A stretch of DNA of 64,000 bases from an uncultured bacterium (GTDB lineage: Bacteria > Electryoneota > Electryoneia > Electryoneales > Electryoneaceae), in contig CAZKGR010000019.1 in assembly GCA_964552465.1 (NCBI GenBank), positions 1,619 through 65,618 on the forward strand, read 5' to 3'. The position numbers and the translations under genes are program-made. How positions within the stretch are numbered: position 1 is the first letter of the stretch; every line of letters begins with the position of its first letter. Below are positions 10,560-29,329 of the stretch, piece after piece. Under the pieces are notes generated by a model. It was not told the DNA's origin. It saw only the letters and a list, made by a program, of their open reading frames with translations, and ran no database searches.

Positions 10560-12776
10560 ATGCGCCGCCGCCGATCAACACGTCCACGGCATCAAAGACG
10601 CGGTAAATCACGTCCGCACAGCACCAAGTCTACCGCGCGCGGACAGGGTTTGCAGCAAGCGGTAGAATCCTTCTTCGAACAACGTCCGAATATAAGCTTC
10701 CGAACCCGTGACCTCGTGCGCGAATTTGCCTCAACACCTTCGGACGAAAAAGAGGTTCGCCGGATCATCCATGCGCTACATGCGGAAGGGCGATTAAAGC
10801 GAATCAAAGGCGAACGTTTCCAGCAGACAACAGATGAATCACCGCGAGCGGTGGGACGGATCGAACTTACCGAAAACGGCGCCGGTTTTGTCCGCATGTC
10901 TGACGGGGACGGCGACATTTTTGTGCAACCATCACGACTAATGGGTGCGCGGCACGGTGATCGTGTCGAAATCGCAATCACCGGCCGAGGACGTTACGGC
11001 AACCGTTCCGGACGCGTGATCCGTGTCGTCGAGCGGGATGATACTCCGGTTATCGGTCGGTTCATCGCCCTGCCGGGACGTGGCGGATTGGTTTACCCGG
11101 ATAACCCGCGGATTCCCGGTCCGGTACAGATCCTGGAAGGAAATCGGCGCGGTGCGAAGCACGACGACCGTGTGCAGGTGAAAGTCGACCCCCACATTCG
11201 CACTCCGCAGCGCCGGGTTGTGAGAATATTCGGTCATGTGGACGATTCTGACGCCCGATTTGCCGCACTGCTCGCCGAAGCCGGTTTTCCGGAAAACTTC
11301 TCCGCTGACGCACTTGCTGAAGCTGATGACAGCACCCTTGAGATCAACGAGCGCGAACTCGCCTTGAGGACTGATTTTCGTAACGACACTGTGATCACAA
11401 TTGATCCAGCATCGGCGAAGGATTTCGACGATGCGCTGAGTTTGACACGCTTGAAGAACGGTGATTATGAACTAGGCGTACATATCGCCGATGTCAGTTG
11501 GTATGTGAATGAAGGCGGGCTGCTGGACAAGGAAGCGCGCGCACGTGGAACCAGTGTCTACAGCTCGCATGGTACATCGCCTATGCTTCCGCACAGCCTG
11601 TCGTCCGATAAATGCAGCTTGGTAGAGGGTGAAGATCGACGGACCATGTCCGTGGTCATGACCATCACGCCAGACGGCAAAGTGATCAACGCGAAACCGT
11701 GCCGCAGTGTGATCCGATCCGCGCGACGCCTGACATACGCACAGGCGCAGACGATGATCGACGAAGGCCGACAAAAGTGGGGCGACGAACTTCCTACCCT
11801 ACGTAAAAACAGCATCGGCCCGCTCGTTTACCACCTGATGATACTGGCTGATGCCATGCGTAAGCGGCGTTTTCGTGGCGGAGGCCTGAATCTCGAATTG
11901 CCAGAGTACGAGGTAATCCTTGACGGCGCAAATGCTGTCGATTCAATTCAGAAACGCGTTGTACTCGAATCAAACCACCTGGTTGAAGAGTGCATGCTCG
12001 CTGCGAATCGGACGGTGACTGAATTTGTCAACCGGTCGCGTGAGAGTAATCCCCGAACGTTCGTTTTTCGCATCCACGACCGTCCTGAGCCAGATCGGCT
12101 TGAGGATCTTGTTGTCCAACTGGACGCGCTGAACATTGACTGGCCATTCAGCCGGACCAACCTCGAGAACCTGCGTTCAAAACAGCTTAACGACTGGTTG
12201 GAATCGCTGAACGCAAATCCGCTCGCCGAAATTATTCGCTACCTGATCCTGCGCGCGATGGCGAAAGCCGCTTATGACACGGAAAACATCGGTCATTACG
12301 GCCTCGGCTTCGTAAACTACACACACTTCACTAGCCCGATCCGGCGCTACCCGGACCTTATGGTGCATCGCATTCTGAATGCGATCCTGGATCGCAAGAC
12401 AAAATATGGACCAGACATTCGTCAACATCTACAGCGAATTTGCGACCTTGCCAGCGAAAGGGAACGTGCCGCCCAGATTGTCGAACGTAAATCACTGAGC
12501 ATTCGGCAGGCAGAATACTTCGCGCGGCAAGTTGGGGTCGAATTCAGCGGTTTGATCGTCGGCGCTATACCACGCGGCGTATTCGTTGAAATTGCCAATA
12601 CCGGTGCCCAGGGAATGATTCTCGCCGAAGATTTGGGCAATGTCTACTTTGACCGCGAGCTGCTTGGCTTCGTTGAAATAACCGGCGACAAGCTGTTCCG
12701 GCCAGGAATGAAATTGCAGGTTCGTGTCCTTTCGGCTGATCCCGACGCCGGTCGTTTCGAGCTGGAACCCGCCTGA
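10560..12776 (+). CDS. rnr: Ribonuclease R (RNB-family 3'-5' exoribonuclease, VacB)
   Basis: RNB signature HFTSPIRRYPDLMVHRIL. N-terminal HTH/cold-shock-like region and C-terminal S1 domain (GLIVGAIPRGVFVEI). Confidence 0.9.
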   Translation: MRRRRSTRPRHQRRGKSRPHSTKSTARGQGLQQAVESFFEQRPNISFRTRDLVREFASTPSDEKEVRRIIHALHAEGRLKRIKGERFQQTTDESPRAVGRIELTENGAGFVRMSDGDGDIFVQPSRLMGARHGDRVEIAITGRGRYGNRSGRVIRVVERDDTPVIGRFIALPGRGGLVYPDNPRIPGPVQILEGNRRGAKHDDRVQVKVDPHIRTPQRRVVRIFGHVDDSDARFAALLAEAGFPENFSADALAEADDSTLEINERELALRTDFRNDTVITIDPASAKDFDDALSLTRLKNGDYELGVHIADVSWYVNEGGLLDKEARARGTSVYSSHGTSPMLPHSLSSDKCSLVEGEDRRTMSVVMTITPDGKVINAKPCRSVIRSARRLTYAQAQTMIDEGRQKWGDELPTLRKNSIGPLVYHLMILADAMRKRRFRGGGLNLELPEYEVILDGANAVDSIQKRVVLESNHLVEECMLAANRTVTEFVNRSRESNPRTFVFRIHDRPEPDRLEDLVVQLDALNIDWPFSRTNLENLRSKQLNDWLESLNANPLAEIIRYLILRAMAKAAYDTENIGHYGLGFVNYTHFTSPIRRYPDLMVHRILNAILDRKTKYGPDIRQHLQRICDLASERERAAQIVERKSLSIRQAEYFARQVGVEFSGLIVGAIPRGVFVEIANTGAQGMILAEDLGNVYFDRELLGFVEITGDKLFRPGMKLQVRVLSADPDAGRFELEPA

Positions 12777-12901
12777 GTCTCTGGAGCACTCTCGCTGCCA
12801 GACGAGTTTAATCCCCGAAAATCCAAAGCACAAGCCGTTTTTGACCTGACAATTACGTAATATCCGAATCATCAGAAATTTACGAATTTTCTAAAAAAAA
12901 C

Positions 12902-12931
12902 TTGATTTACCCCCCCCTCGCCGTAATTATT
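12902..12931 (+). promoter_or_regulatory. Possible sigma70-like promoter (TTGATT-17-TAATTA) upstream of the small-peptide ORF
   Basis: Sequence pattern only. AT-rich context. Confidence 0.2.
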
Positions 12932-13063
12932 CTATGAATAGTCAGACCTTAAAAGGTACGCTCTCGCACGAGATCCAAAAAATACCGACGCGTGACTGAG
13001 AATTCTCAGCAAAAGAGTTGGATCTCGTTATTTAGTAGTAAGCATGAAACAAGAGGAGTCTGA

Positions 13064-13222
13064 CATGGAAGCCGCATTCAATCTGCTACTCGTCATCCTT
13101 GGGATGGGATTTGTTGGCGGCATAGCTTTCACAATCGCCCGTATACGTAGTGGGCGCACGGTTATGCCAGATTTTCGCGTTCCTTTGAGCGTGAACCCGA
13201 ACCAAACCTCAGAACAGTTCTG
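13064..13222 (+). CDS. Small hydrophobic peptide, 52 aa (paralog 1 of 3)
   Basis: MEAAFNLLLVILGMGFVGGIAFTIARIRSGR... An AAGAGGAG SD sits 8 nt upstream. One TM helix plus a basic tail. Paralogous to 13516..13611 and 62606..62743. Confidence 0.45.
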
Positions 13223-13515
13223 AGAAATCCAGTAAGCGAATATTATCGCCTGGGATTCGATGTAACCCTGGAGGCATGAGAGACATATTCGATGATGTAA
13301 TTCATCCAATCGTTTCTGGATCTCTTAATATCTTCCTCCACTCCGGCTCCCGCATCATCCATTCCCTCAAGTGATATTTTATCTCACACACGCGCTGAAC
13401 TATTGAGCAGGATGTTTGCAGGTTCTCGTCCGTGTCGTATGTTGATACAACTGCCGACAATGACGTGCGTAAGTTATTGAAAATTACTTGTGTGGAGTAA
13501 TCGGCGGAGGGGAAG

Positions 13516-13611
13516 ATGGAACAGGTTTGGATCAACCTCGCTTACATCGCAGGCGGGGTAGGATTTGGTCTGGCAATGGTCGCAGTAGTTCAAAAACTGC
13601 GTCGTTCCTGA
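13516..13611 (+). CDS. Small hydrophobic peptide, 31 aa (paralog 2 of 3)
   Basis: MEQVWINLAYIAGGVGFGLAMVAVVQKLRRS. A GGAGGGGAAG SD lies immediately upstream. A hairpin with a U-tract follows (13665..13697). Confidence 0.4.
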   Translation: MEQVWINLAYIAGGVGFGLAMVAVVQKLRRS

Positions 13612-13664
13612 ATATAGAAACAAAAACGCCTTGGATATGATCAGGTGTGGCGGTGCTTTGTTTT

Positions 13665-13700
13665 GCCCGTGTTCGGCAGTTACCGGACGCGGGTTTTCTC
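13665..13700 (+). terminator. Probable terminator after small peptide 2
   Basis: gcccgtgttcggcagttaccggacgcggg (imperfect stem) followed by TTTTCTCTC. Confidence 0.35.
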
Positions 13701-13932
13701 TCTATATATGCCCCAGACATTTATGCTGGGATGAATCACCACCTGCGTGGCCGAGGGCATGTACATTGTGCCTGTGATAGACCGTGAAACGGCTATAGCG
13801 GATTATCCACAAGCCCAAATGTGTCGGTCATCCCTGCTGGCAGAGCCCGCAGGGGCACCGTACATGCTTCAACCAACAGGAAACCCGGGATTGAAACCCC
13901 GGGCTATACATATCAGAGAATTTGCACGGTTC

Positions 13933-15123
13933 TTAGAACTCAGCGCCGGTATACACCAACCGGATGAACCGCGGGCGGTATATGTCCGCGTAAGTGAAAT
14001 GATCCCAGAAATCCAGGCAATTGACATTGTAACTAATCAGCAATTCACCCGGTTCAGACAAACTCGGATGAGCCTTCGCGTTGTAGCACCAGGCGTCTGC
14101 GTCGGGGAAATCGTCCGGGACGGTGCTGGTATAAATGGGGTGCGTGATGCTCCACGGACCGCGAGGACTGAGCCCAATACGGAAGCCGATGGTACGGGTG
14201 ATCGTGTCTACGGTGAAAATCATGATGTAGCGGTTGTTCGGTAACGGTGTTACACTCATTTCCGATGACACCCGATTTGTCAAGCGCGCCGCCTGGGTGA
14301 AATCCGCCACCCACTGCTGTCCGTCAAAGAAACGCCACTGGTCTAAATCTGTGAACTGTTCTTCGGGCACACGCGCCACCAGCGAGTACTTGTCATACGG
14401 CACTTCTTCCAACCCGTAGATGTAAATGAAACCGTCAGGATTCGGTGCCCCGGCACGCTCAGTGTTCGCCATCAGCCCCGCTGTGAAACTGATTTCACCA
14501 CGATCTCCTTCCGCGGGTGCGTGAAACGGTAGTTCGTATTGCTGGTAATTGTTGAACGGTGGGGATGAGCCCGCCGGAATCCGAATGATAGCAGTGCCTG
14601 TGCGCACGAACCACAATTCCTGATCGCTGCGCATGCGCAACGCCAGGATATAGACAGCGTCCGGCAGCGAGATTCCGTCTCCCAGCCAATACCACTCGCC
14701 GGGCTGGCTGTTCGGTGTGTCGGGCACGAACATGGACGCCGCATTACCACCCTGCTGCCGGTAAATGAAATGGATGCTGTCTGGATCGACAATACCCGGT
14801 GGCAGGTAAGCCATGGTGTTGTTGATCATTGTAGTCCCGCCCAAGCGATTGCCCTGATCATCCACCTCGCCGATGAAAGTGTCGCTGAACACGAACAGAG
14901 TCTGGTTGGTGTTATGGGCACCGAAATGATCGTTGCCATCAACCGGGATGGAATAGATGCCGTCCGCGCCGGACCAGCCGGAATGCTGGTCAAACATCGC
15001 GTCCCATTCCGGTGCTTCCTCCACATACCAGTTCTGGGCGCTGGATACGCCGAAACCCATCAGAAGGAAGACAACGAGCAATAAAGCAGCAATTCGTGGC
15101 ATCTTGAAATCCTCGACAAACAT
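13933..15123 (-). CDS. Secreted protein, uncharacterised family (paralog 1 of 4; no T9SS CTD)
   Basis: Signal peptide then the conserved AQNWYVEEAPEW...SGW.GADGI.SIP...FVFSDTFIGEVD...PDTPNS.PG.WYW..DGI.L...YNAKAHP.LSEPGELL.SYNVN..DFW.HF..ADIYRPRF. The profile is beta-rich; the fold or glycoside-hydrolase affinity was not verified. Confidence 0.8.
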   Translation of the reverse strand: MFVEDFKMPRIAALLLVVFLLMGFGVSSAQNWYVEEAPEWDAMFDQHSGWSGADGIYSIPVDGNDHFGAHNTNQTLFVFSDTFIGEVDDQGNRLGGTTMINNTMAYLPPGIVDPDSIHFIYRQQGGNAASMFVPDTPNSQPGEWYWLGDGISLPDAVYILALRMRSDQELWFVRTGTAIIRIPAGSSPPFNNYQQYELPFHAPAEGDRGEISFTAGLMANTERAGAPNPDGFIYIYGLEEVPYDKYSLVARVPEEQFTDLDQWRFFDGQQWVADFTQAARLTNRVSSEMSVTPLPNNRYIMIFTVDTITRTIGFRIGLSPRGPWSITHPIYTSTVPDDFPDADAWCYNAKAHPSLSEPGELLISYNVNCLDFWDHFTYADIYRPRFIRLVYTGAEF

Positions 15124-15140
15124 GTCAGTTTGCTAACCAG

Positions 15141-16607
15141 CTATTTCACAACGGTAAACTTCTGAGTTGGAATGTTGTCCGCACCGTCAATTTGCAGGAA
15201 ATATGTCCCGGACGAGAACAGGTTTGCATTGAGCGACACGGTTTGTAGACCGGCGGATAGTTCCCCCCGGTGCAGGGTTTCAACCAGCCGTCCCATGATA
15301 TCATACACCGCAATGTTTACATCGGCCGTCATTGGCAGATCAAAGTTTAGCACCGCGGACGCATTAAATGGATTCGGCGCGATCACAGGGGCAGGAGTTA
15401 ACGTGATTTGCGATCCGATTTCGGCTCCTGGATTGTTCAGGATGCCTTGATCAAGAATCAGCTTCACGAACCGCGGGTGGTATATATCCGCATTGCTGAA
15501 ATGCGCCCAAAAATCGCTACAGTTGATGTTGTAACTGACCAGCAGCTCGCCCGGTTCGGACAGATGCGGATGCGCCTTCGCGTTGTAAGTGGTGATCGGG
15601 AGATCTGGCCAGATATCCGGTTCAGGCACCGTGTAGAAGACGTGATAGTCGCCCCACGGCCCCCACGGGGTCGGTGCAAGACGGAAAGCCAGCTCACGCC
15701 CAATCGTTCCGACCTGAAATACAAGGATATAGCGCCCATCCGGCAGTGGCGTGACACTCATTTCATGCGACACTCGATTAGTAACCCTGACAGCATCATT
15801 CATGTCATCCGACCACTGCCCCTGTCCGGCATAGAAACGCCACGCGCTGGGAATGGGGAAATGTTCTTCCGGCACGCGTGCGACTAGCATGTGCTTGTCC
15901 AGCCACGCATCTTCAGCACCGTAGATATAAATGTAGCCATCGGGGAAGTATGCGCCGGCACGTTCTGTGTTCGGCATAATCCCAATCGAGAACCTGCGTG
16001 TCCCGCGGTCGCCATTTTCAGGCAGATGGAACGGCAGATCGTATTGCTGATAATCGTTAAATGGTGGGCGATCGTGGTATGGCATACGAACCATCGCCGT
16101 TCCGTCGAGTGCAAATCCTCCTCCCATCGGCGTCCGCATGCGCCAGACGATAAAATAGACAGCGTCCTCGAGCGCGATTCCGTCACTAGGCCAATACCAC
16201 GTTCCCGGCGGTGCATTGGGAGTGTCGGGGACAAACATCGACTGTGGATTGTTGAACGTGCCCTTGTAGTAGAACTCAGACGTTATCGGATGAGGTCCAT
16301 CAGGCGGCCACCACGCTAAAGTGTTGTTGATCATGTGCGTATTCAGGCGGTTGCCGTTATTGTCGACTTCACCGATGAAGGTGTCGCTGAAAATGACTAG
16401 AGTATTATTCGTGTGATGTGCGCCGAATTGTTCGTTACCGTCCAATGGGACGGTGAAGATGCCGTCAGCGCCAGTCCAGCCATAATCACGGGTGACGACG
16501 CTATTCCAGCCCGGTGCGAGTTCCGTGTGCCAGTTCTGGGCACACACCAATCCGGAGTTGGCCAGGACCACGGTCAGGACGAATGCCGCACAAGTAGTTC
16601 TTTGCAT
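15141..16607 (-). CDS. Secreted protein, same family (paralog 2 of 4) with T9SS C-terminal sorting domain
   Basis: Same conserved core plus a C-terminal about 80 aa APNPFNASAVLNFDLP...GTYFLQIDGADNIPTQKFTVVK (Por/T9SS CTD). Confidence 0.8.
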   Translation of the reverse strand: MQRTTCAAFVLTVVLANSGLVCAQNWHTELAPGWNSVVTRDYGWTGADGIFTVPLDGNEQFGAHHTNNTLVIFSDTFIGEVDNNGNRLNTHMINNTLAWWPPDGPHPITSEFYYKGTFNNPQSMFVPDTPNAPPGTWYWPSDGIALEDAVYFIVWRMRTPMGGGFALDGTAMVRMPYHDRPPFNDYQQYDLPFHLPENGDRGTRRFSIGIMPNTERAGAYFPDGYIYIYGAEDAWLDKHMLVARVPEEHFPIPSAWRFYAGQGQWSDDMNDAVRVTNRVSHEMSVTPLPDGRYILVFQVGTIGRELAFRLAPTPWGPWGDYHVFYTVPEPDIWPDLPITTYNAKAHPHLSEPGELLVSYNINCSDFWAHFSNADIYHPRFVKLILDQGILNNPGAEIGSQITLTPAPVIAPNPFNASAVLNFDLPMTADVNIAVYDIMGRLVETLHRGELSAGLQTVSLNANLFSSGTYFLQIDGADNIPTQKFTVVK

Positions 16608-16703
16608 CTACATCTCCGCTCACTATCGACACAATGGAGAAACGAATTCACAGAATCGGCTTCGCGGTCACCATTGCTATATAGATAATTAACCTGCCTA
16701 TCG

Positions 16704-17876
16704 CTAAAACCGATTCCCCAAATAAATCAGTCGCACAAATCGTGGACGGTAGATTTCGGCGTGGTCGAAATGCGCCCAGAAATCATGAACGCTGACGTTA
16801 TAGCTGACCAGAAGCTCGCCCGGCTCGGACAAGTGTGGGTGTGCTTTGGCGTTGTAACACCACACTGGCATCCCGATATAGTCATCCGGTTCAGGGCAAT
16901 GATAGAATATGTGATACTCACCCCATGGTCCCCATGGAGTTGGACCTATTTTGAACGCGAGATCCCGCCCAATGGTGTCGAGTTGGTAGACCACGATGTA
17001 GCGTCCATCGGGCAGCGGCGTCACACTCATTTCTGGCGAGACGCGTCCCGCAGTGCTGACCGCGTTGCGGAAATCAGATATCCAACCATCCTGTCCGGCC
17101 CAGAATCGCCAGGCGTTGCCGTCTGTAAACTGTTCTTCGGGAACGCGGGCAACCAACAACCGTTTATTCATCGGAACTTCTTCAACCCCGTAGATATAGA
17201 TGTATCCATCCGGGAAAGGAGCGTTCGCACGTTCAGTATTGGGCATGATTCCGACACCGAAACTTATGCTACCACGAGTTTCATTGGCTGGTTCAAACAA
17301 ATCCAGTTCCCACTGCTGGTAGTGGTCAAACGGTGGTCGGGCGGTTGCTGGTAAACGGAGCATCGCGACTCCGTCACGGGCAAAACCAACCTGCTGGTCA
17401 GGTCGCATCCGCCAAGCGAGGAAATAAACCGAACTGTCAAGAGCGATTCCATCACTGGGCCAATACCAATGGTCAGGCTCAGAGTTGGGGGTATCAGGGA
17501 TAAATGTCGTAGCTGGAGAGCCGTCATCTTCAGCGTAATAGAACTGCGCGGTTTCAGGGTCAGGCACCCCAGGCGGCATCCATGCAAGAGTGTTCTTAAC
17601 CATTTGCGTGCCGGGCAAACGGTTCCCAGCGCTATCAACTTCGCCGATGAATGTGTCGCTGAAGACGAACAGCGTGTTCACGTAATTATGCGACCCGATG
17701 GTTTCATCACCGTTCAGTGGGATAGAAAAAATTCCATCGGCCCCGGTCCATCCTGAAGTACGGTGAAACACAGCACTCCACTCAGGGACTTCTTCGACAT
17801 ACCAGTTTTGTGCGTGGGATATGCCGAAGCCCGTCAGAATGAAGACCACGATCAGCGATGTTGCAGTTCTGGACAC
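16704..17876 (-). CDS. Secreted protein, same family (paralog 3 of 4; no CTD)
   Basis: Signal peptide plus the conserved core. Ends ...IYRPRFVRLIYLGNRF. Confidence 0.8.
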   Translation of the reverse strand: MSRTATSLIVVFILTGFGISHAQNWYVEEVPEWSAVFHRTSGWTGADGIFSIPLNGDETIGSHNYVNTLFVFSDTFIGEVDSAGNRLPGTQMVKNTLAWMPPGVPDPETAQFYYAEDDGSPATTFIPDTPNSEPDHWYWPSDGIALDSSVYFLAWRMRPDQQVGFARDGVAMLRLPATARPPFDHYQQWELDLFEPANETRGSISFGVGIMPNTERANAPFPDGYIYIYGVEEVPMNKRLLVARVPEEQFTDGNAWRFWAGQDGWISDFRNAVSTAGRVSPEMSVTPLPDGRYIVVYQLDTIGRDLAFKIGPTPWGPWGEYHIFYHCPEPDDYIGMPVWCYNAKAHPHLSEPGELLVSYNVSVHDFWAHFDHAEIYRPRFVRLIYLGNRF

Positions 17877-17913
17877 GTGTAATCCTCGTTATAACATCGG
17901 TTAGCTGACCAGC

Positions 17914-19380
17914 TTACTTCACGACAGTAAATCTTTGAGTTGGAGTGTTCTCCGCTCCTCTGACTTGCAAGAAATACGTTCCTGACGCGAAACGGCTGCC
18001 GTTCAGCGACAACGCTTGTTGTCCCGCTGGCAGCATTCCGGAATACAGTTGCTGGACCATGCGGCCAGCAATGTTGTAGATCGCGACATCCACTTTCCCT
18101 GCCTGCGGCAAATCGAATGTGATGACGGCGGACGCATTGAACGGGTTGGGCGCGATCAGCGGGGCGGGATGTACGGTCAATGTCATCCCTTCGGCGAATG
18201 TCGCTGGCATCAGAGCCGCGGGATTGTAGACGAGATTGATAAACCGCGGTCGATAGATATCGGGATAATCAAAGTGCGCCCAGAAATCAACATTATTTAC
18301 TGAATAACTCATGAGCAATTCGCCGGGTGCGCTGAGGTGCGGATAAGCCTTGGCGTTGTAAACGAAGGTGCCCGCCAGCGAATCCGGCTGCGGACAAGTG
18401 TAGAGTTCGTAGTATGGTGACCACGGTCCGACCGGACTCGCCCCGACCCGCGCAGCGACACTCCTGCCGACAGTGTTCAATTGAAAGATCATCAGGAAGC
18501 GACCGTCGGGCAGCGGACTCACACTAAGATCCATACCGCACTGCCCAGTCACCGGCACGGCGTCACTGAAATCCGGCACCCAGGCGAACCCATTCCAGAA
18601 GCGCCACGCGCTCAGTGTTGCGATTTCATCCTCGGGCACTCTTGAAACAAGCACGCGCTTGTTCTGTGGATTCACTTCGGCCTTGACGCCGTAGATGTAG
18701 ATATAGCCGTCGGGGAAGGGTGCACCGGAGGTGGTTGTGTTCGGCATTATGCAACCGCCGAAAGACTTTCCCCACATATAGTCGTTCGCCGGTGCCCAGA
18801 ATGGAATCTCATGCTGAATGTGATCTTCGAACGGCGGCAACGATCCGGGCGGAATCTCAAGCACTGCAGAACCAACCAATGTTGGTTCCATGCCTTCGAC
18901 AGTCACACGGTCAGTAAAGAGATATATGGTGCCGTCGGAAATGATTCCGTCTTTAAGCCAGTATTGATCACCGGGATTTGAGTTCGGCGTGTTCGGAATG
19001 AACATCGTTATCGGATTGTCGTTACCGTCAGTTCCCCAGATGAACTCGATTGTCTCAGGATCGGGCGGGCCAGGAGGCATTATGGCAAGCGTGTTGTGGA
19101 CCATTTGCGTGCCCGGTTGACGCTGACCGTTTACGACCTCGCCGATGAATGTATCGCCGAAGGTGAACATCGTGTAATCACTCAGGTAGCCGTTGGGTTG
19201 CTCTAGCCCCGACAACGGAAATCCGAAGGTGATATCCGCTCCCGTCCAGCCTGAAGTCTGGGCGAACAACGCGGTCCACTCCGGCGCTTCCTCGACATAC
19301 CAGTTCTGGGCGTGAGCCGCGTAGAAACCGGTAAATACGAGTACTGTCAATACTATGGAAACCGTTATTTGTCGCATCAT
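17914..19380 (-). CDS. Secreted protein, same family (paralog 4 of 4) with T9SS CTD
   Basis: Conserved core plus APNPFNASAVITFDLPQAGKVDVAIYNIAGRMV...GTYFLQVRGAENTPTQRFTVVK. Confidence 0.8.
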   Translation of the reverse strand: MMRQITVSIVLTVLVFTGFYAAHAQNWYVEEAPEWTALFAQTSGWTGADITFGFPLSGLEQPNGYLSDYTMFTFGDTFIGEVVNGQRQPGTQMVHNTLAIMPPGPPDPETIEFIWGTDGNDNPITMFIPNTPNSNPGDQYWLKDGIISDGTIYLFTDRVTVEGMEPTLVGSAVLEIPPGSLPPFEDHIQHEIPFWAPANDYMWGKSFGGCIMPNTTTSGAPFPDGYIYIYGVKAEVNPQNKRVLVSRVPEDEIATLSAWRFWNGFAWVPDFSDAVPVTGQCGMDLSVSPLPDGRFLMIFQLNTVGRSVAARVGASPVGPWSPYYELYTCPQPDSLAGTFVYNAKAYPHLSAPGELLMSYSVNNVDFWAHFDYPDIYRPRFINLVYNPAALMPATFAEGMTLTVHPAPLIAPNPFNASAVITFDLPQAGKVDVAIYNIAGRMVQQLYSGMLPAGQQALSLNGSRFASGTYFLQVRGAENTPTQRFTVVK

Positions 19381-19388
19381 CCAATCCC

Positions 19389-20942
19389 TTATTTCATCAA
19401 TACCGCCTTTTGCATCTGGGTACCCTGATCCGTGACTGTGGCGGATACGAAATACACACCACTCGCCAGGTTTGATCCATCAAGCACCAGCGAATGCTGA
19501 CCTGCTGTATAGCTGCCCTGAGCGAGGATTGCTGCCTGACGTCCGAGTGCGTCGTAAACAACCACGTTTACATGCGCAGCTTCGGGAAGCGTCAAGGTTA
19601 ACGATGTCGTCGGATTGAACGGGTTTGGATATGCCGTACTCAGCACGAATTCAGACGGCGCAGTGATATTTTCAGCCGCTGATCCAGCCAATTCGTCACC
19701 GAGTTGCGCTAATCCATCGCTGTGCCAGCCGCCAACAGCTATACCGTCTGTTCCTACCGCCAGCTTGCTGAAGCCGAAGCCGTCTTGAGCGATTGGCGTG
19801 GACGGGTCTGGTCCAGCGTACACGTTGAAAATGTAATCGCCTGCCGGTGCGAAGCCGGGAACATCTTGAGTCAGCAACGGCACGAAAATGTTCGCCTGCG
19901 CAGGCAGAATCACCGGAACACTTTCCACGAAGTACTCGAAACCGCTGGGCATGGTAGCTGTCGTCCAAATGCTGCCGAAAAACGGTGTCTGGTAGGTCGA
20001 CGTAATACCCAGGCTCCAGTTGAAGCTCCCGCCCAGCGCCGGTATCTGAATTGGTGGGCTCAGAGGGTTCGCATCAAGAACCAGGGTTTCCGGTGTGTCG
20101 CCGAGATTCATCCTGCGGACGGTTGACGCGGTCGTGAAATTCGGATCGGTTTCCCCAGGATATGAAAGCGCAAATGCGACTTCACCGTATCCCGGCGTAT
20201 ACCACGAATACGCCTTAGATACCGGAACTTCATAAATTCGACCGATTGGAACTTCAATCGGGATGCCAAAGAGATACCAGATCCCGACCGCATCCGCGTA
20301 ACCGCCGACCTGCGAATACACACGGAGAGCATCCACGTTGCCGCCGGGTAGAGTGACCGTACCCCAACCATCGCAGAGATTCTCGCCGCCAATCGTGATT
20401 TCAATTCTAATCTCGTCAAACAAGGGGATTGGATAGGGGATGTCATTCACGTCTATTGTAACCTCATGATAGATATTGATGCCCCAGGAATCGTTGTAGT
20501 CCAATGGCAACGGCATCAAAGGAATTTCAAATGGGAATGGGAACTCACCGCCAAGCTCTTCCACGTACAGAGTTATCCCGAGAACAGTCCATTGGCTGGC
20601 TGTGACCTGGTCATAGCGCCACGACGGTCCTTCGTCCAGGCCGAACGGAACCGGACCATAAGTAGCCCGGTTGGCCGCGGGGAACCACAGGTGCCATGGT
20701 GTATCTGACGGTGTAAAGATCTCTTCGTTTTGGATGGTGAACTGGGAAACTTGTGAGAAATCCCAAGACTGGTTCGCACCAGAAGCGCCGACATTCACCG
20801 CAACATCCGATTCGACCATGTATTCGAAGATCGTACCCGGTGTCATCGGAACATCCTGATCCGTGAAATTGATTTGTGCCAGCGCGTTTGAACCACTTGA
20901 CACAAGCAAAAAGACCAGCAATCCCGTAATTAACGTTTTCAT
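19389..20942 (-). CDS. Hypothetical secreted protein with T9SS C-terminal sorting domain (517 aa)
   Basis: Signal peptide. The C-terminus is AYPNPFNPTTSLTLTLPEAAHVNVVVYDALGRQ...GVYFVSATVTDQGTQMQKAVLMK. It lies 8 bp from the upstream paralog array on the same strand. Confidence 0.75.
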   Translation of the reverse strand: MKTLITGLLVFLLVSSGSNALAQINFTDQDVPMTPGTIFEYMVESDVAVNVGASGANQSWDFSQVSQFTIQNEEIFTPSDTPWHLWFPAANRATYGPVPFGLDEGPSWRYDQVTASQWTVLGITLYVEELGGEFPFPFEIPLMPLPLDYNDSWGINIYHEVTIDVNDIPYPIPLFDEIRIEITIGGENLCDGWGTVTLPGGNVDALRVYSQVGGYADAVGIWYLFGIPIEVPIGRIYEVPVSKAYSWYTPGYGEVAFALSYPGETDPNFTTASTVRRMNLGDTPETLVLDANPLSPPIQIPALGGSFNWSLGITSTYQTPFFGSIWTTATMPSGFEYFVESVPVILPAQANIFVPLLTQDVPGFAPAGDYIFNVYAGPDPSTPIAQDGFGFSKLAVGTDGIAVGGWHSDGLAQLGDELAGSAAENITAPSEFVLSTAYPNPFNPTTSLTLTLPEAAHVNVVVYDALGRQAAILAQGSYTAGQHSLVLDGSNLASGVYFVSATVTDQGTQMQKAVLMK

Positions 20943-21243
20943 CGTTCTTCCCCCTTCTCTATGCCCGGCATACGGCAGCCGTTATCCCCAGCTTTGTATG
21001 ATCAGATTAATCCAACTAGAATAAAACGAAGAACTCCAAAAATCTCTCCAATCAGTGTACGCACCGAAAGTTATCAGTCCAAGGAAAAGCGTGGGACGTC
21101 GCCAATAAGTAGGTCCAAATTGTCTCTCCGCTCCATAATCCAACCATCCGGCTCAGAGCGCGTAACGGTTTGCCTTTTCCATTCGTCGCACGTACGTTCC
21201 AGACCATTCATCAACATTCCAATTTCAGATTCAAGGAGTAACC

Positions 21244-22365
21244 ATGCACGACCCGCGTCACGACAAGCTTGCAAACCTGCTCGTCAACTATTCCTGCGAA
21301 ATTCAGCCCGGTGAAAAGGTGCTGATTGAGTGTTACGATACACCGGTCGAGTTCATCGATTCGATCGTCAAGGCTGTTTATGCGGCGGGCGGCCATCCGC
21401 TGCTCGAACTGAAACACAACAAGCTGATACGTACCATGCTCAACGGCGCATCCAAGGAATCGCTGGCGGCGATCCAGGATAGCGAACTGCATCGAATGAA
21501 GAACATGGACGCGTTCATCGGTGTTCGCGGTGTGTCGAACGCGAAAGAGTTGAGCGATGTGGAGTCTGACAAAAACGCGCTGTGGGGGACCGAGGTTTTC
21601 CAGCCGGTGCACGCGAACGAACGTGTGCCGAATACCAAGTGGGTTGTTCTGCGTTACCCGACTCCGGCGATGGCGATGATGGCAGACATGAGCACCGAAG
21701 CGTTCGAGGACTATTACTTCAAAGTGACCTCCGACGTTGACTACAAGAAAATGTCTGAAGCGATGACCCCGGCAGCTGATTATCTGCGTAACGCCGACCA
21801 GGTCCACATCACCGGCCCCGGCACCGATCTCAAATTCTCGATCAAGGGTATCGGAGCGGTCAAATGCGACGGACAGCGCAACATCCCGGACGGCGAAGTC
21901 TACTCCTGCCCGGTGCGCGACTCGGTGAACGGTACAATTCGTTACAACACACCGTCCAGCTACCATGGGTTCACGTTCAAGGACATCGAACTGACTTTCG
22001 AGAACGGTAAAATCGTCAAGGCGACCGCCAACGACACCAAGCGCATTAACGCGATCCTCGACACGGACGAAGGCGCACGCTACATCGGCGAATTCGCACT
22101 CGGCTGCAACCCGGCGATCGACTTCGCGATGGATGAGATCCTGTTTGACGAAAAGATCGGCGGCAGTTTCCACTTCACGCCGGGCAACGCGTACGACGAC
22201 ACCGATAACGGTAACCGTTCGGCTGTGCACTGGGACCTGGTTCTGATTCAGACGCCGGAATATGGCGGCGGCGAGATTCACATGGACGGCGAACTGATCC
22301 GCAAAGACGGCCTGTTCGTTCATCCGGCGTTCGAAGGATTGAATCCCGACAAGTTGATGGGGTAG
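21244..22365 (+). CDS. Aminopeptidase, M29 family (AmpS/PepS/aminopeptidase T-like)
   Basis: Full-length similarity pattern of thermophilic M29 aminopeptidases (LANLLVNYSCEIQPGEKVLI..., ...YIGEFALGCNP...GGSFHFTPGNAY...). The long antisense ORF 21211..22626 is a shadow. Confidence 0.85.
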   Translation: MHDPRHDKLANLLVNYSCEIQPGEKVLIECYDTPVEFIDSIVKAVYAAGGHPLLELKHNKLIRTMLNGASKESLAAIQDSELHRMKNMDAFIGVRGVSNAKELSDVESDKNALWGTEVFQPVHANERVPNTKWVVLRYPTPAMAMMADMSTEAFEDYYFKVTSDVDYKKMSEAMTPAADYLRNADQVHITGPGTDLKFSIKGIGAVKCDGQRNIPDGEVYSCPVRDSVNGTIRYNTPSSYHGFTFKDIELTFENGKIVKATANDTKRINAILDTDEGARYIGEFALGCNPAIDFAMDEILFDEKIGGSFHFTPGNAYDDTDNGNRSAVHWDLVLIQTPEYGGGEIHMDGELIRKDGLFVHPAFEGLNPDKLMG

Positions 22366-23491: not shown

Positions 23492-26400
23492 ATGAAACAA
23501 CAGCACACCATCATATTGATTGCTTTCCTGGTTGTATTCCTTAACGTTGGAATCGCGCGCGCTGCCGCTCCGAATCAATCACCAGTTCAACATCGAGAAT
23601 CCTCATTCGACTTCGACTTTCGTGCGCAAACGTGGTATGGCCTGAACGAAGCCACATCCGCCCGTTCCAACGAGGAGGCTGCGCGGGAGTATCTGCTACG
23701 TTACCCTGACCGATTCGGCGGAGTCGAATCGATAGAGGAGCTCGAATTTATCAGCGAGAGGACAAGCCCCTCCGGCCACCATCTGCTGTTTCGGCAAATG
23801 GTCAGCAATATCCCCGTATACCGTGGTGAAGTGCGGGTGCACATGGACCAGCAGCGGGTTATAAAAGCCGTGACCAGCACTGTTCTGCCGGTCTCGCAGT
23901 TGGTTGTAACACAACCCGCAATACCCGCAGAAACGGCGATTCAGACTGCGATTGACCGCATCGGAGAACCACGACCAGACTCACAACCTGACACCGATCA
24001 ATTGATTGTAATTGATCATGAATCTGGCGACGGGTACGTTGTGTGGCGAGTACGCCTGTCTTGCATCAATCCTCTCGGCGACTGGGAGTTGCTGATCGAC
24101 GCATTAAACGGCGATGTCCTGTACATCGACAACCGGATGGCGTTCGAAAACGGTGAAGGGTTGGCATTCGATCCGGACCCAATTAGTACCGCTGGGGTTG
24201 AATATGGCGAACCGGGCTACACGGACGACGACGATGCCGACACGCCCGAGTTGAACGTCGAACGCGTCCCCGTGCTGCTGCGCGACATCAGTTTCCATGA
24301 AGGCGCTTATTGGTTAGAAGGGCCGAATGTCGAAATTACTGATTTCGAAGCTCCTGCAATCACGCCTGTTTCTTCAGCAACATTGAACGGATTCACCTAC
24401 ACCCGCAGCGAGTCCGGGTTCGAAGACGTGAACGCGTACTACCACATCGACTCGATGCAGCGCCTGATACAATCACTCGGTTTTACGGACCTTCAGAACG
24501 GACCGATCTCGGCAGATCCCCATGCCTGCAACGGGCAGGACATGTCTTACTATTCGCCGGAGTTCAACCGTCTTGGATTTGGCGAAGGCGGAGTGGATGA
24601 CGCCGAAGATGCCGATGTGCTCCGTCACGAATACGGCCACGCGTTGCACCATGACGCGGTCGGAGGTGAAGTGTGGGGCGTAGACATCCGTTCAATTGCC
24701 GAAGGCATCTGTGACTATTGGGCATCGAGCTTGTCAGATAGAACCGAACCGTTTCACAGTTACTGGGTTTACAACTGGGACGGTCACAATGAGTTCTGGG
24801 ACGGCCGTTTCGTCACGACGGAAGATGTTTACCCAGATGACTGGTCGGCGGACTTATATCGCAACGGGACCATCTGGGCACATGCGCTGTGGTCGTTCAG
24901 CCGAGATGTCAACAATGCGGATGTGGCAGATGCGATCGTCGCGCAATCTCTGTACTACATGGCATCAGGTATTGATCCCGAAGCCGCCGCGCAAGCCCTG
25001 CTGCAGGCTGAGGATGATCTGTATGGCGGGCAGTACCGGATTGATGTCGTGACCGCCCTCGCGGAAAAAGGATTCATGGATGCCTATGGTTCAATGGAAG
25101 GATACATCGGCAACGAGTTGACTGGGAATCCGGTTGAGGGCGCGCAGATCACCGTCGAAGGTGTGTCCGCCTTCTCCGAAGCGAACGGTCATTACCTGCT
25201 TGAGCAAATTCCCATTGGACACTGGGACGCAGAATTTTCTGCCGAGGGATTCCGAAACACTTCACGCAATGTGTATATCGAGACTGAACAAACCCTGCAA
25301 TTCAGCATATTGTTGTCGCCAGTGATTGCAACTGTTGATGTCGATTCGCTGAACCTGCACGCGTACATCGGCGAGAATGCCGATTCCAGTATCACCCTGA
25401 CATCGTTGAACAGTGACATTTATTACATCATGCGGGCTGATCCGGTAGGTTTAGATCCCATACCGCCATATGAAGCACATGCCGCAATTCCGCTCAACCT
25501 TCCCCCGGAAGAAATGCAGGACGTGGTGTTCGTAAACGGCTGTTATTACGTGCTGCACACCGCAGCGCAGGCAGTGTACAGTGTGTATGTGCTGGACCAG
25601 AACGGTTTCCCAGTACGCAGCTTCCTGCAACCTACCGATCTTGGGATACCGTTCCGAGGATTGACCACGGATGGTGAATTCCTCTATTCCATCGTGTCAA
25701 GCACCATAGTTAAATATGACACACTCGGTGTAGTTCATCATCAGTTTGAGGACGTTCATCCAACCTACAGGTGGTTGGCTAAGACTCAGTTCGACGGACA
25801 TTTCTGGTGTGCTCGTGAGGACGGAGTGATCGAACCGTTTGGATTGGGTGTCGGTCACTACTGGGAACCCATTGAGACGGGGTTGCCGATCAATGGGATT
25901 GCCTATGATATAGGGCGAGGGGATCTGGCTTCTGTCGTATTACTAACCGATCCCGAAGGTTCGGCGCCGGAAGTGCATTTCTTCGACACGACTCACCATA
26001 CCCTGGTTGATGAGCATTACACGCTGGCAAACGAATTTGGTGTGCCCCTGGGAGCGGCTGTGTTCACCGGTTTGCAGCAACCGATTGACTACCGCTACCT
26101 GGTGACTCTGATGGACGAGGGTGCCGGCCAGCAGCTGCAACTGTACCGTATTCGTTGGACAATCCCGTATATCTCGTTTGATGGATTGTCTGGCCTGGTG
26201 TATGAAAACGAGTCAGATACAGTCGCTGTCCACGCTGAATCGCAATTCCTGGAAACGGGCTTCTATGAAGCGATGCTGAAGATTTTCTTTCCGCACGGCG
26301 GATCGGCACTGGAAGTGCCGTTTACACTACGAATTACGGCCGTCAATGCACCGCAATTCGCAAATGCCGGACAACCACGCGAGTTCGCCGTGACCGCGCC

Positions 26401-26644
26401 ATCGCCTAATCCGTGCAATGCGGCAACGGTGATGACTGTAACTACACCACGAGCTGGCGAAATCAAGTTGAAAGTTTATGATATCCTCGGACGGCAGGTT
26501 GATCATATACGGTGGCAGCAGGATGCAGGATCGCGACGCATCACATGGACGCCCGCACCTGGAACTGCGAGTGGTTTGTACCTGGTGCGAGTGCAAATTG
26601 AGGAGTACTCACCAATCACGCGCAAAATTGTCGTTGTGAAGTGA
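23492..26644 (+). CDS. Secreted HExxH zinc metalloprotease (M4/M36-like FTP propeptide + catalytic domain + carboxypeptidase-regulatory-like beta domain + T9SS CTD), 1050 aa
   Basis: Signal peptide. FTP-like propeptide motif (HHLLFRQMVSNIPVYRGEVRVHMD). Zinc site VLRHEYGHALHHD. CarbopepD_reg-like GNPVEGAQITVEGV...NGHYLL. C-terminal T9SS domain ...GLYLVRVQIEEYSPITRKIVVVK. Confidence 0.8.
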   Translation: MKQQHTIILIAFLVVFLNVGIARAAAPNQSPVQHRESSFDFDFRAQTWYGLNEATSARSNEEAAREYLLRYPDRFGGVESIEELEFISERTSPSGHHLLFRQMVSNIPVYRGEVRVHMDQQRVIKAVTSTVLPVSQLVVTQPAIPAETAIQTAIDRIGEPRPDSQPDTDQLIVIDHESGDGYVVWRVRLSCINPLGDWELLIDALNGDVLYIDNRMAFENGEGLAFDPDPISTAGVEYGEPGYTDDDDADTPELNVERVPVLLRDISFHEGAYWLEGPNVEITDFEAPAITPVSSATLNGFTYTRSESGFEDVNAYYHIDSMQRLIQSLGFTDLQNGPISADPHACNGQDMSYYSPEFNRLGFGEGGVDDAEDADVLRHEYGHALHHDAVGGEVWGVDIRSIAEGICDYWASSLSDRTEPFHSYWVYNWDGHNEFWDGRFVTTEDVYPDDWSADLYRNGTIWAHALWSFSRDVNNADVADAIVAQSLYYMASGIDPEAAAQALLQAEDDLYGGQYRIDVVTALAEKGFMDAYGSMEGYIGNELTGNPVEGAQITVEGVSAFSEANGHYLLEQIPIGHWDAEFSAEGFRNTSRNVYIETEQTLQFSILLSPVIATVDVDSLNLHAYIGENADSSITLTSLNSDIYYIMRADPVGLDPIPPYEAHAAIPLNLPPEEMQDVVFVNGCYYVLHTAAQAVYSVYVLDQNGFPVRSFLQPTDLGIPFRGLTTDGEFLYSIVSSTIVKYDTLGVVHHQFEDVHPTYRWLAKTQFDGHFWCAREDGVIEPFGLGVGHYWEPIETGLPINGIAYDIGRGDLASVVLLTDPEGSAPEVHFFDTTHHTLVDEHYTLANEFGVPLGAAVFTGLQQPIDYRYLVTLMDEGAGQQLQLYRIRWTIPYISFDGLSGLVYENESDTVAVHAESQFLETGFYEAMLKIFFPHGGSALEVPFTLRITAVNAPQFANAGQPREFAVTAPSPNPCNAATVMTVTTPRAGEIKLKVYDILGRQVDHIRWQQDAGSRRITWTPAPGTASGLYLVRVQIEEYSPITRKIVVVK

Positions 26645-26688
26645 AGCCACAACAACTGCCGGTGTGTCAAACGAAGAGGTACACCCGC

Positions 26689-28491: not shown

Positions 28492-28719
28492 GGAATCTCA
28501 CGGGATAACACAGGAATACAACAGTTGCCGGTCAATATACTTAAAGCCGTCATGAAGATGCGGAGGATAATCGGATTGCGCAATTATTTCTGAGGCAGGA
28601 ACGTATTTGTAAACAACTAGAATCCAAAGAACTACCAAAGTCCCTGAGAGACACAAGCCCCAAACGAGATGGGGCTTGTCATGTTGGTTCAATGTGATTT
28701 CATGTCTAATGGGGATCGG

Positions 28720-29295
28720 CACAGCAACACTGTTACCCGGCGTGGAGCGATGGAAACGGATGTTTTTTGTTTGACCGCTCTCGCACCACGCGCGGGTCAT
28801 AACTTCTTGCCAGCGGTTGAGATTAGTCAACGTCGGCACACTTTTGCCTGGCGTAGCGCAGCGGATTCGGACGTTATGTTTGTTTGACCGTCCCCACGCC
28901 ACGCACAGGCCTGATTTCTCGCCAAACGTCGAACTTTCAACGTCGGCACACTTTTGCCTGGCGTAGCGCGGCGGATACGGACGTTGTGTTTGTTTGACCG
29001 TCCCCGCGCCACGCACAGGCCTATACTTATCGCTTGTCAAGCGAAGCGTCTTCTGATGATGACCGGATTCAAGCGATTGACTCAAAAGTTGCCTGGCGTG
29101 AACCGATGGAAACGGGGTCCAGTCGCCGAGTGTTGACCGTCCACGATCCACGCTCAGGCCTGAGATCTCTCTCCAGTCGAACTATATCCTGTCAAACAAC
29201 AGAACTGCTAAACTTTTGCCCGGTGCGGCGCGACGGTTACGGACCGTTGTTAGTGTTTGACCGACCCCGCACCACACACGGGCCAATTCCAATCC
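28720..29295. repeat. Tandem array of about five degenerate 110-140-bp palindromic units (core ...cttttgcctggcgtagcgc-N-cggac-N-tgtttgaccgtcc-ccgcgccacgcacaggcc)
   Basis: Unit cores (ttgaccg) sit at 28771, 28884, 28994, 29133 and 29257. The 5' arm gcctggcgtagcgcgg pairs with the 3' arm ccgcgccacgcacaggc in each unit. The array is intergenic between the two beta-helix paralogs. Confidence 0.75.
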
Positions 29296-29329
29296 TTCCA
29301 GATTACGCCTGGAAGGAGTTATTTCTTGA

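Follow-up and report, generated by a model that had tools for sequence, protein, structure and literature searches.

How does a bacterium come to carry, side by side, four copies of one secreted protein family of which every second copy bears a sorting domain for the type IX secretion system (T9SS), and what might such an array be for? The question is raised by a locus within a 64,000-nucleotide stretch of DNA (hereafter, the window; contig CAZKGR010000019.1 of assembly GCA_964552465.1) from an uncultured bacterium of the Electryoneota lineage. The four genes, referred to as c1 to c4, encode proteins with a common core; c2 and c4 are "tailed," that is, end in a sorting domain, and c1 and c3 are untailed. 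An earlier note, made by inspection of the sequence, had described four consecutive same-strand genes with spacers of 17–96 bp, and the open reading frames are indeed found exactly where it placed them, on the minus strand, with spacers of 17, 96, and 37 bp. Its proposal that the array is a duplicated two-gene unit fared less well. The analysis described below leads us to favor, as the probable explanation, four anciently diverged and individually maintained paralogs of a glycoside hydrolase family 183 (GH183)-like retaining enzyme, brought together by birth-and-death evolution of the cluster and not by a recent en-bloc duplication.

A shared five-bladed propeller core

The cores of c1–c4 are 47–62% identical in pairwise comparisons over approximately 365 residues, far above chance, and the four-way alignment has a mean column identity of 64%. 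The long conserved core that had been reported is borne out by this alignment, which holds the segments AQNWYVEE.PEW and YNAKAHP.LSEPGELL.SYNV..DFW.HF...IYRPRF. The family had been considered not assignable by eye; profile searches place the core in Pfam DUF4185 (PF13810), with scores of 56.5, 51.7, 53.1, and 58.2 bits for c1, c2, c3, and c4, respectively, all above the gathering score of 39.5 bits, the matches in c2 and c4 being partial and covering blades 3–4 only. The related DUF5005 profile (PF16396; gathering score 29.6 bits) is matched above the cutoff by c3 (41.1 bits) and c2 (33.8 bits) and below it by c1 (25.0 bits) and c4 (19.6 bits), and these matches span just the C-terminal 50–160 residues. 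DUF4185 is the founding domain of the CAZy family GH183, which consists of retaining endo-alpha-D-arabinofuranases of Dysgonomonas, mycobacteria, and Microbacterium (PMC10115798, PMC10509167).

Structure prediction is consistent with this assignment. The AlphaFold2 (AF2) model of c3, built with 64 homologs, is a five-bladed propeller (predicted local distance difference test score [pLDDT] 94.7, predicted template modeling score [pTM] 0.91), and its best Foldseek match is 4HBS, the DUF5005 protein BACOVA_04882 (E 2e-21, template modeling [TM] score 0.68), followed by the GH183 enzyme EndoMA1 (8IC1, chain 8ic1_A, and 8HHV; E 5e-17, TM 0.59). Other five- and six-bladed propellers, including GH68, GH43, and sialidases, are ten orders of magnitude weaker. 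The same order emerges from a hidden Markov model (HMM) search of PDB sequences, in which 4HBS is matched at full length (E 7e-21) and EndoMA1 over blades 3–4 (E 2e-13); when c3 alone was used to search PDB sequences, 4HBS was the sole match. Identity is low in both cases, approximately 17–20% to EndoMA1 and approximately 20% to 4HBS. Thus, the core is a member of the DUF4185/DUF5005 (GH183-like) superfamily of five-bladed propellers, in agreement with the initial guess of a beta-propeller, glycoside-hydrolase-like domain. The earlier note had added that novelty would drop if profile searches put the core in a well-known family that routinely pairs sorting-domain and domainless members; this has largely turned out to be so, both forms being common in the family.

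Catalytic residues and the divergent c4

In EndoMA1, D33 is the nucleophile, D51 the acid/base, and E243 is essential (PMC10509167), and in DgGH4185b mutation of D170 or D188 abolishes activity (PMC10115798). Direct HMM alignment of the family to GH183 stopped short of the N-terminus, a profile of the N-terminal 128 residues also failed to reach GH183, and a canonical DUF4185 paralog from L039, used as a bridge to 8IC1, aligned from residue 119 onwards only. The catalytic residues were therefore mapped with eight full-length relatives of EndoMA1, retrieved with a fragment rebuilt from the alignment, the profile of which was compared with a 64-sequence family profile by hhalign (probability 99.2%, E 9e-19). 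In this alignment, D47 (c3 numbering; motif GWTGAD) pairs with the nucleophile motif TDLG, D74 (FSDTF) pairs with the acid/base motif FGDTY, and E282 (SPEMSV) pairs with E243 in ELSV, the last correspondence being recovered also directly against 8HHV in the HMM search. The two Asp motifs are equivalent to D170/D188 of DgGH4185b as well. The EndoMA1 relatives have TDLG, 18 residues, and then FGDTY. Both aspartates are invariant in the 64 homologs and are kept in c1–c4, and E282 is more than 90% conserved.

The c4 core stands apart from the others, departing at 12 of the 88 family-conserved positions (including G48I, R278Q, S280G, E282D, and H346Y). Together with its ortholog from a sister genome, P0012, it deviates at 12–14 of these positions; most of the changes are common to both proteins, with R278Q in c4 alone, and the residues just after D47 are altered, position 48 being Ile in both (G48I) and position 49 being Thr in c4 (I49T) and Ala in P0012 (I49A). 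This pair is nevertheless under the strongest purifying selection measured, with a ratio of nonsynonymous to synonymous substitution rates (dN/dS) of approximately 0.09. Such selection in spite of altered conserved positions fits a changed specificity, not decay, and the c4-type enzymes, in which residues around the active site have changed, probably differ in specificity from c1–c3.

It might be argued instead that some copies, chiefly c4, are pseudoenzymes or bind glycans without cleaving them, or that the untailed genes are what is left of tailed ones in decay. The departures from consensus beside D47 and at E282D would agree with this view, as would a nonsense variant that cuts the c4 sorting domain in a sister assembly (see below), but D47 and D74 are present in all four proteins, the replacement of Glu by Asp is conservative, the selection on the c4/P0012 pair is the most stringent of all pairs, the c1 type is the most widely kept (95% identity between its L004 and L167 representatives), and no sorting-domain remnant is found past c1 or c3. 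We consider this alternative very unlikely. A narrower version, in which the untailed copies would be pseudogenes left by truncation, was examined and rejected on account of the missing domain remnants and the purifying selection.

Ancient divergence of the paralogs

Comparison with close relatives sheds light on the history of the array. Three sister genomes share the synteny of the M29 aminopeptidase gene and a gene for a 517-aa protein located next to c4, with M29 proteins 90–91% and RNase R 82% identical to those of the window; loci syntenic to window positions 13933–22365 were found in L003, L004/L007, L167, and L169. The copy number of the family at this locus ranges from 0 to 4 (0, 1, 2, or 4). 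Where the window has c4 (tailed), c3, c2 (tailed), and c1, L003 has a c4-type tailed gene (P0012, 86% identical to c4) and a c1-type untailed gene (P0003, 69% to c1); L004 has a c2-type tailed gene (P0007) and a c1-type gene (P0005, 73% to c1); L167 has only a c1-type gene (95% to P0005 and 74% to c1); and L169 carries the 517-aa gene and zero family members. The 517-aa gene occupies the same position in L003, L004, and L167 and is also found without any DUF4185 gene in both L169 and L171. Of the family members at this locus, it is the untailed c1 type that is retained most widely; for c3, no ortholog was found in the available sister genomes. A scan of JGI metagenome contigs for close relatives yielded nothing nearer than 51% identity.

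Each of c1, c2, and c4 has an ortholog in a sister genome that is closer to it than any paralog in the window; for instance, c4 is 86% identical to P0012 and only 47% identical to c2, and c1 is 73% identical to P0005 and 60% identical to c3. P0007 and c2 further share a derived N-terminus (NWH.EL) and linker (LILDxGILNNPGAE). The orthologs are maintained by selection, with dN/dS of 0.05–0.18 (approximately 0.14 for c1 versus P0005), whereas synonymous sites are saturated between the window paralogs. Because the orthologs in L003 and L004 belong to distinct types, at least three of the four lineages predate these species.

Neighbor-joining trees under three distance corrections recovered c4 with P0012 (bootstrap 100%), c1 with P0005 and P0003 (94–99%), and c2 with c3 (84–95%), and gave 0% for c1 with c3 and for c2 with c4, the groupings expected from the duplicated-unit proposal of the earlier note, which, as a recent event, is refuted by these trees and by the closer sister-genome orthologs. 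Quartet parsimony likewise counted 1 site for (c1,c3 | c2,c4) versus 6 and 8 for the alternatives; with orthologs swapped in, the counts became nearly equal, the informative sites being too few for the deep order, and the deep branching is therefore close to a star. It should be noted that the c4-type genes have diverged more strongly from the outgroups than c1 and c3 have, by 10–13 identity points (48–49% versus 59–62% identity to P0004 and P0006), so that their basal place may be a rate artifact.

The block-duplication scenario in its general form holds that a tailed and an untailed gene were duplicated as a unit to yield c4-c3 and c2-c1. It would account for the alternating gene order and for the two sister genomes whose corresponding locus holds a single tailed gene and a single untailed one, and, given the accelerated c4 branch, the basal position that speaks against it could be artifactual. 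However, the bootstrap and parsimony values, the saturation of synonymous sites, and the retention of different tailed types in L003 and L004, which makes the duplications older than these species, all point the other way. An ancient and rapid two-by-two event is not supported by the cores but, with a tree near a star and an accelerated c4 branch, retains some probability; overall we regard the scenario as improbable. The possibility that c3 is a simple chimera of c1 and c2, with an N-terminus more c1-like and a C-terminus more c2-like, was rejected in view of the interspersed diagnostic sites.

Export signals and an apparently mobile sorting domain

All four proteins start with a hydrophobic segment of 22–24 aa ending in SSA, VCA, SHA, or AHA (A-x-A) and followed by Gln, which reads as a Sec/signal peptidase I (SPI) signal peptide with Gln as the predicted first mature residue. 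Together with the core identities, this upholds the previous description of the copies as exported paralogs. The Gln following the SPI site recalls the Q-rule of Bacteroidetes (PMC5837995). Sites of this kind (SSA-Q, VCA-Q, SHA-Q, AHA-Q, and ALA-Q, the hyphen denoting the cut) occur in c1–c4 and in the products of the genes at 19389–20942 and 26689–28491; the resemblance is seen although the lineage is not classified in Bacteroidota, and two other secreted proteins of the window deviate.

At the C-terminus, c2 and c4 are longer than c1 and c3 by approximately 100 aa, made up of a linker of approximately 20 aa and the sorting domain. As had been claimed, the domain is confined to these two copies: both match TIGR04183 and PF18962 well above the respective cutoffs of 23 and 27 bits, whereas c1 and c3 match neither profile, and tblastn searches downstream of c1 and c3 detected no remnant of the domain. 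Both untailed proteins end in ...RLxYxGxxF, at the point where the outgroup protein P0004 runs on into a sorting domain of its own. The strict alternation of tailed and untailed copies represents two of the six possible orders and is by itself statistically unremarkable.

With 61–73% identity to one another, the sorting domains of c2, c4, P0007, and P0012 group together; they are only approximately 35% identical to others in the same genome, a relationship that would also suit duplication of a two-gene unit. Yet the domain and the core have not evolved in concert. Between c4 and P0012, the sorting domain has accumulated changes at approximately double the rate of the core (dN 0.165 versus 0.088), whereas between c2 and c4 the relation is reversed (dN 0.28 at 63% identity for the domain versus 0.50 at 48% for the core), and the sorting domains of c2 and P0012 are 73% identical, with cores at 45%. 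The simplest explanation is that a linker-plus-domain cassette was exchanged between tandem paralogs or, alternatively, that the c4 core changed rapidly early on. More distant members of the family carry sorting domains that share only approximately 30–40% identity with their c2 and c4 counterparts and are joined to the core at other points (P0004, P0013/P0015, and P0060); domains and junctions differ, and therefore the tail has been gained several times within the family. Loss of the tail looks easy as well, judging from the assembly of a sister sample that is 99.9% identical, in which a C-to-T change turns CAG into TAG in c4 (Q471*, at L002:9910, corresponding to window positions ~17968–17970) and removes the last 17 residues of the sorting domain. 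This change may be a real population variant, that is, tail loss in progress, or an assembly error.

Family distribution and the possible substrate

A search with the family profile against 1.84 billion representative sequences retrieved 903 clusters (at 50% identity) with E ≤ 1e-30 and 4826 with E ≤ 1e-3. Named sources include Calditrichota, Planctomycetota, Gemmatimonadota, Krumholzibacteriia, Rhodothermales, Ignavibacteria, Bacteroidota, Verrucomicrobiota, Acholeplasmataceae/Izemoplasma, and Paenibacillus. Tailed forms are common in the phyla that have T9SS, and untailed ones predominate elsewhere.

The neighbors of family genes were clustered for approximately 160 loci (L008–L166). The most recurrent are GH38 (30 loci), TonB-dependent receptors (26 loci), and a mannose-6-phosphate-isomerase-like (PMI-like) protein of approximately 590 aa (25 loci; PDB 1QWR, E 8e-12), accompanied by ABC sugar transporters, ROK and BadF kinases, GH92, GntR regulators, SusD, and hybrid two-component regulators. 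Of the 50 loci whose family member is 38–45% identical to c1, 28 have a GH38, GH92, or PMI-like gene no more than 5 kb away, as do 20 of 44 loci with members below 38%; among members at or above 45% identity, this is the case at 1 of 19 loci. The mannosidase context (members 29–45% identical to c1) is met in metagenome-assembled genomes of Firmicutes/Mollicutes-like bacteria as well as in phyla of the Fibrobacteres–Chlorobi–Bacteroidetes (FCB) group. GH172 (DUF2961) and GH116 are absent from the window and from the 20 most recurrent neighbor families.

These associations suggest that the wider clade is tied to catabolism of mannosides and not of D-arabinan, although the hint transfers unsafely to the subclade of the window, the genes of which stand alone. 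The competing possibility is that c1–c4 are true GH183 endo-alpha-D-arabinofuranases acting on the arabinogalactan or lipoarabinomannan of Mycobacteriales or on environmental glycans containing D-arabinan. The DUF4185 match, the GH183-like fold, and the conserved catalytic triad agree with it, and all DUF4185 enzymes assayed, including those from Bacteroidota, Myxococcus, and phage, are endo-D-arabinanases (PMC10115798). Against it stand the identity to EndoMA1 of no more than ~17–20%, an inter-Asp loop 9 residues longer than in GH183, the DUF5005 protein 4HBS as the closest structure, and the neighborhoods, which feature GH38, GH92, PMI-like proteins, and sugar kinases where GH172 or GH116 would be looked for. 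We consider a D-arabinanase activity unlikely and slightly favor mannose-containing glycans as the substrate. A more far-reaching proposal, which we put forward as no better than a tentative one, is that the clade between DUF4185 and DUF5005 (approximately 900 clusters at E ≤ 1e-30) constitutes a distinct glycoside hydrolase family or subfamily acting on a mannose-containing glycan, in which swapping or loss of the sorting cassette between tandem paralogs, as would be recorded in the array of the window, would routinely readdress enzymes between periplasm and surface; the substrate part is advanced because of the repeated GH38/GH92, PMI-like, and sugar kinase neighbors.

In Ignavibacteria and Calditrichia, family members approximately 40% identical to those of the window reside in tight, same-strand operons (L038:1456-16080, L104:533-14526, and ~20 alike), which encode, in order, a TonB-dependent receptor, a 620-aa protein whose C-terminus is weakly T9SS-like, a PorV/PorQ-family outer-membrane protein, a tailed family member with a DUF4961-type N-terminal domain (Pfam check on L038 only), GH38, and, in some cases, an ABC transporter. 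An untailed canonical DUF4185 gene is found further along. These operons look like a T9SS-linked, SusD-less type of glycan utilization locus.

A model of the array

In the scheme that we favor, each protein would be exported by Sec and processed by signal peptidase I. The type A C-terminal domain would then direct c2 and c4 across the outer membrane through T9SS, to be attached to the surface or released, whereas the tail-less c1 and c3 would stay in the periplasm. Catalysis would rely on the GH183 Asp pair, with D47 as the nucleophile, D74 as the acid/base, and E282 in a supporting role. The tailed enzymes might make the first endo-cuts in an external polysaccharide, and the untailed ones might process the imported oligosaccharides. 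The tandem cluster itself would evolve by birth and death, with the sorting-domain cassette exchanged or lost among the paralogs. One activity in two compartments is a plausible reading. It would agree with the two relatives that have a single gene of each form, and it is best supported, by analogy, by the Ignavibacteria loci, where an untailed DUF4185 gene accompanies a tailed family member.

Several observations weigh against the model or parts of it. Obligate pairing is at odds with L167, which keeps an untailed gene alone, and with another close relative that has none. Neither a transporter, nor a TonB-dependent receptor, nor any other glycan utilization gene lies beside the locus, and no T9SS component is encoded within the window; we infer the export of c2 and c4 by T9SS and the periplasmic location of c1 and c3 solely from signals in the sequences. 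With respect to catalysis, the aspartates are 27 residues apart in c1–c4, compared with 18 in the EndoMA1 relatives and 4HBS and with the GH183 signature of 17–18, the essential Glu is replaced by Asp in c4, and the closest structure, 4HBS, is that of an uncharacterized protein, the activity of the subclade being a prediction. Finally, the phylogeny was obtained by neighbor joining and small parsimony counts, not maximum likelihood.

Organization of the locus

The features of the array are listed in Table 1. A public metagenome contig is identical in sequence to the window; on it, gene callers picked the likelier start of c1. Upstream of c4, at a distance of 8 bp, lies the 517-aa gene, which is probably co-transcribed with it, and c1 is followed by a terminator-like hairpin (fold of −20.4 kcal/mol, z = −2.0) that, by consensus-type reasoning, likely marks the end of a five-gene transcription unit. 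The close spacing at one end and the hairpin at the other together indicate that the five genes are probably transcribed as one unit. A scan of the locus for sigma-70 promoters and terminators returned fewer matches than in shuffled sequence and was uninformative, and an Rfam scan of 12500–21500 gave no match. On one side of the array lies the M29 aminopeptidase gene, transcribed divergently, and on the other the RNase R gene, transcribed convergently.

Table 1 Features of the c1–c4 locus in window coordinates
Feature	Position	Strand	Description
Terminator-like hairpin	13875-13903	-	GC hairpin then U-rich tail, ~30 nt past c1 stop codon
c1	13933-15123	-	396 aa; 389 aa from likelier start 15102; no sorting domain
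c2	15141-16607	-	488 aa; core, linker, and T9SS type A sorting domain
c2 sorting domain	~15144-15383	-	Residues 409-486; TIGR04183 42.1 bits, PF18962 37.0 bits
c3	16704-17876	-	390 aa; GTG start; no sorting domain
c4	17914-19380	-	488 aa; divergent core subtype and T9SS type A sorting domain
c4 sorting domain	~17917-18156	-	TIGR04183 42.7 bits, PF18962 36.6 bits
517-aa protein gene	19389-20942	-	All-beta protein with own T9SS sorting domain (PF18962 35.5 bits)

The AF2 model of the 517-aa protein is confident and all-beta (pLDDT 85), and its comparison with PDB folds gave generic Ig-like beta-sandwich matches only (TM <0.2), with no functional clue. The C-terminal ~45% of this protein (approximately 230 residues including the sorting domain) is 35–42% identical to many unrelated T9SS cargo proteins of the lineage. 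In the 1.15-kb gap between RNase R and c1 (12777–13932), there are two small hydrophobic open reading frames on the plus strand, 13044–13223 (59 aa) and 13516–13611 (31 aa); in the equivalent gap of the public contig, small genes of 52 and 31 aa are called. Additional secreted proteins are encoded at 23492–31159, namely, two right-handed beta-helix (NosD-like) proteins of approximately 600 aa and a CarboxypepD_reg protein of 1050 aa that carries a sorting domain. With a further one encoded at 37958–40042, sorting domains occur in five proteins of the window, an indirect hint that the genome encodes T9SS machinery.

Comparison with known systems

Proteins c1–c4 resemble the GH183 enzymes (EndoMA1, PDB 8HHV/8IC1; DgGH4185a/b; Rv3707c) in the five-bladed propeller, the DUF4185 match, and secretion, in the conserved catalytic Asp pair (xxD-G ... 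F[GS]DT[YF]) and the S-E-[LM]-S-V glutamate, and in the frequent presence of several paralogs per locus, such as four in Microbacterium and two in Dysgonomonas. They differ in the C-terminal blade signature, YNAKAHPxLSxPGELLxSYN instead of YGGYFHPW, in addition to the spacing of the aspartates and the low overall identity noted above. Furthermore, the GH183 loci of Dysgonomonas and Microbacterium carry GH172/GH116 partners, whereas the array of the window is without them. The substrate of c1–c4 probably differs from that of GH183, and the label "DUF4185 = endo-D-arabinanase" is unsafe to transfer to this clade. A literature search, in which the term DUF5005 came up in a single mention in one paper, found no publication on its function, and the DUF4185 papers listed, going by their titles and abstracts, do not deal with this clade.

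The best match by both sequence and structure, 4HBS of Bacteroides ovatus, is a structural-genomics "putative hydrolase" that has in common with c1–c4 the motifs GW.G.DG and F.D[ST]F, the C-terminal HP.LS..GEL..S.N...FW..F, and YRP.F, and is set apart from them by its 18-residue Asp spacing and only ~20% identity; being uncharacterized, it gives no clue to the substrate. With respect to targeting, c2, c4, and the 517-aa protein have the architecture of T9SS type A cargo of the FCB group (TIGR04183/PF18962), namely, a Sec signal and a terminal beta-sandwich domain of approximately 80 aa; in the present lineage, whose nearest named relatives are Calditrichota metagenome-assembled genomes and not a studied member of Bacteroidota, sorting by T9SS is a prediction, as is whether the cargo would remain attached or be released. 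Among Sus-like utilization systems, the nearest case is that of the L038/L104 operons, which likewise combine a tailed surface member with an untailed paralog of the DUF4185 superfamily. Besides these two, the operons encode GH38, a TonB-dependent receptor, a PorV/PorQ-family protein, and, in many cases, an ABC transporter, all of which are missing from the locus of the window, which sits between housekeeping genes; a SusC/SusD pair or a TonB-dependent receptor with a regulator is absent next to the array and occurs only beside more distant family members.

Tandem paralogs of secreted glycosidases, some with a T9SS tail, are ordinary for bacteria of the FCB group, and the array is best seen as an expansion of a known superfamily and not as a new system. 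What the comparison brings out is a sizeable subclade of GH183/DUF5005 that crosses phyla, has the full set of GH183 catalytic residues, is uncharacterized, and is found in genomic contexts away from D-arabinan. Close genomes with 0, 1, 2, or 4 copies, together with the nonsense variant, provide a small natural series for the gain and loss of T9SS targeting.

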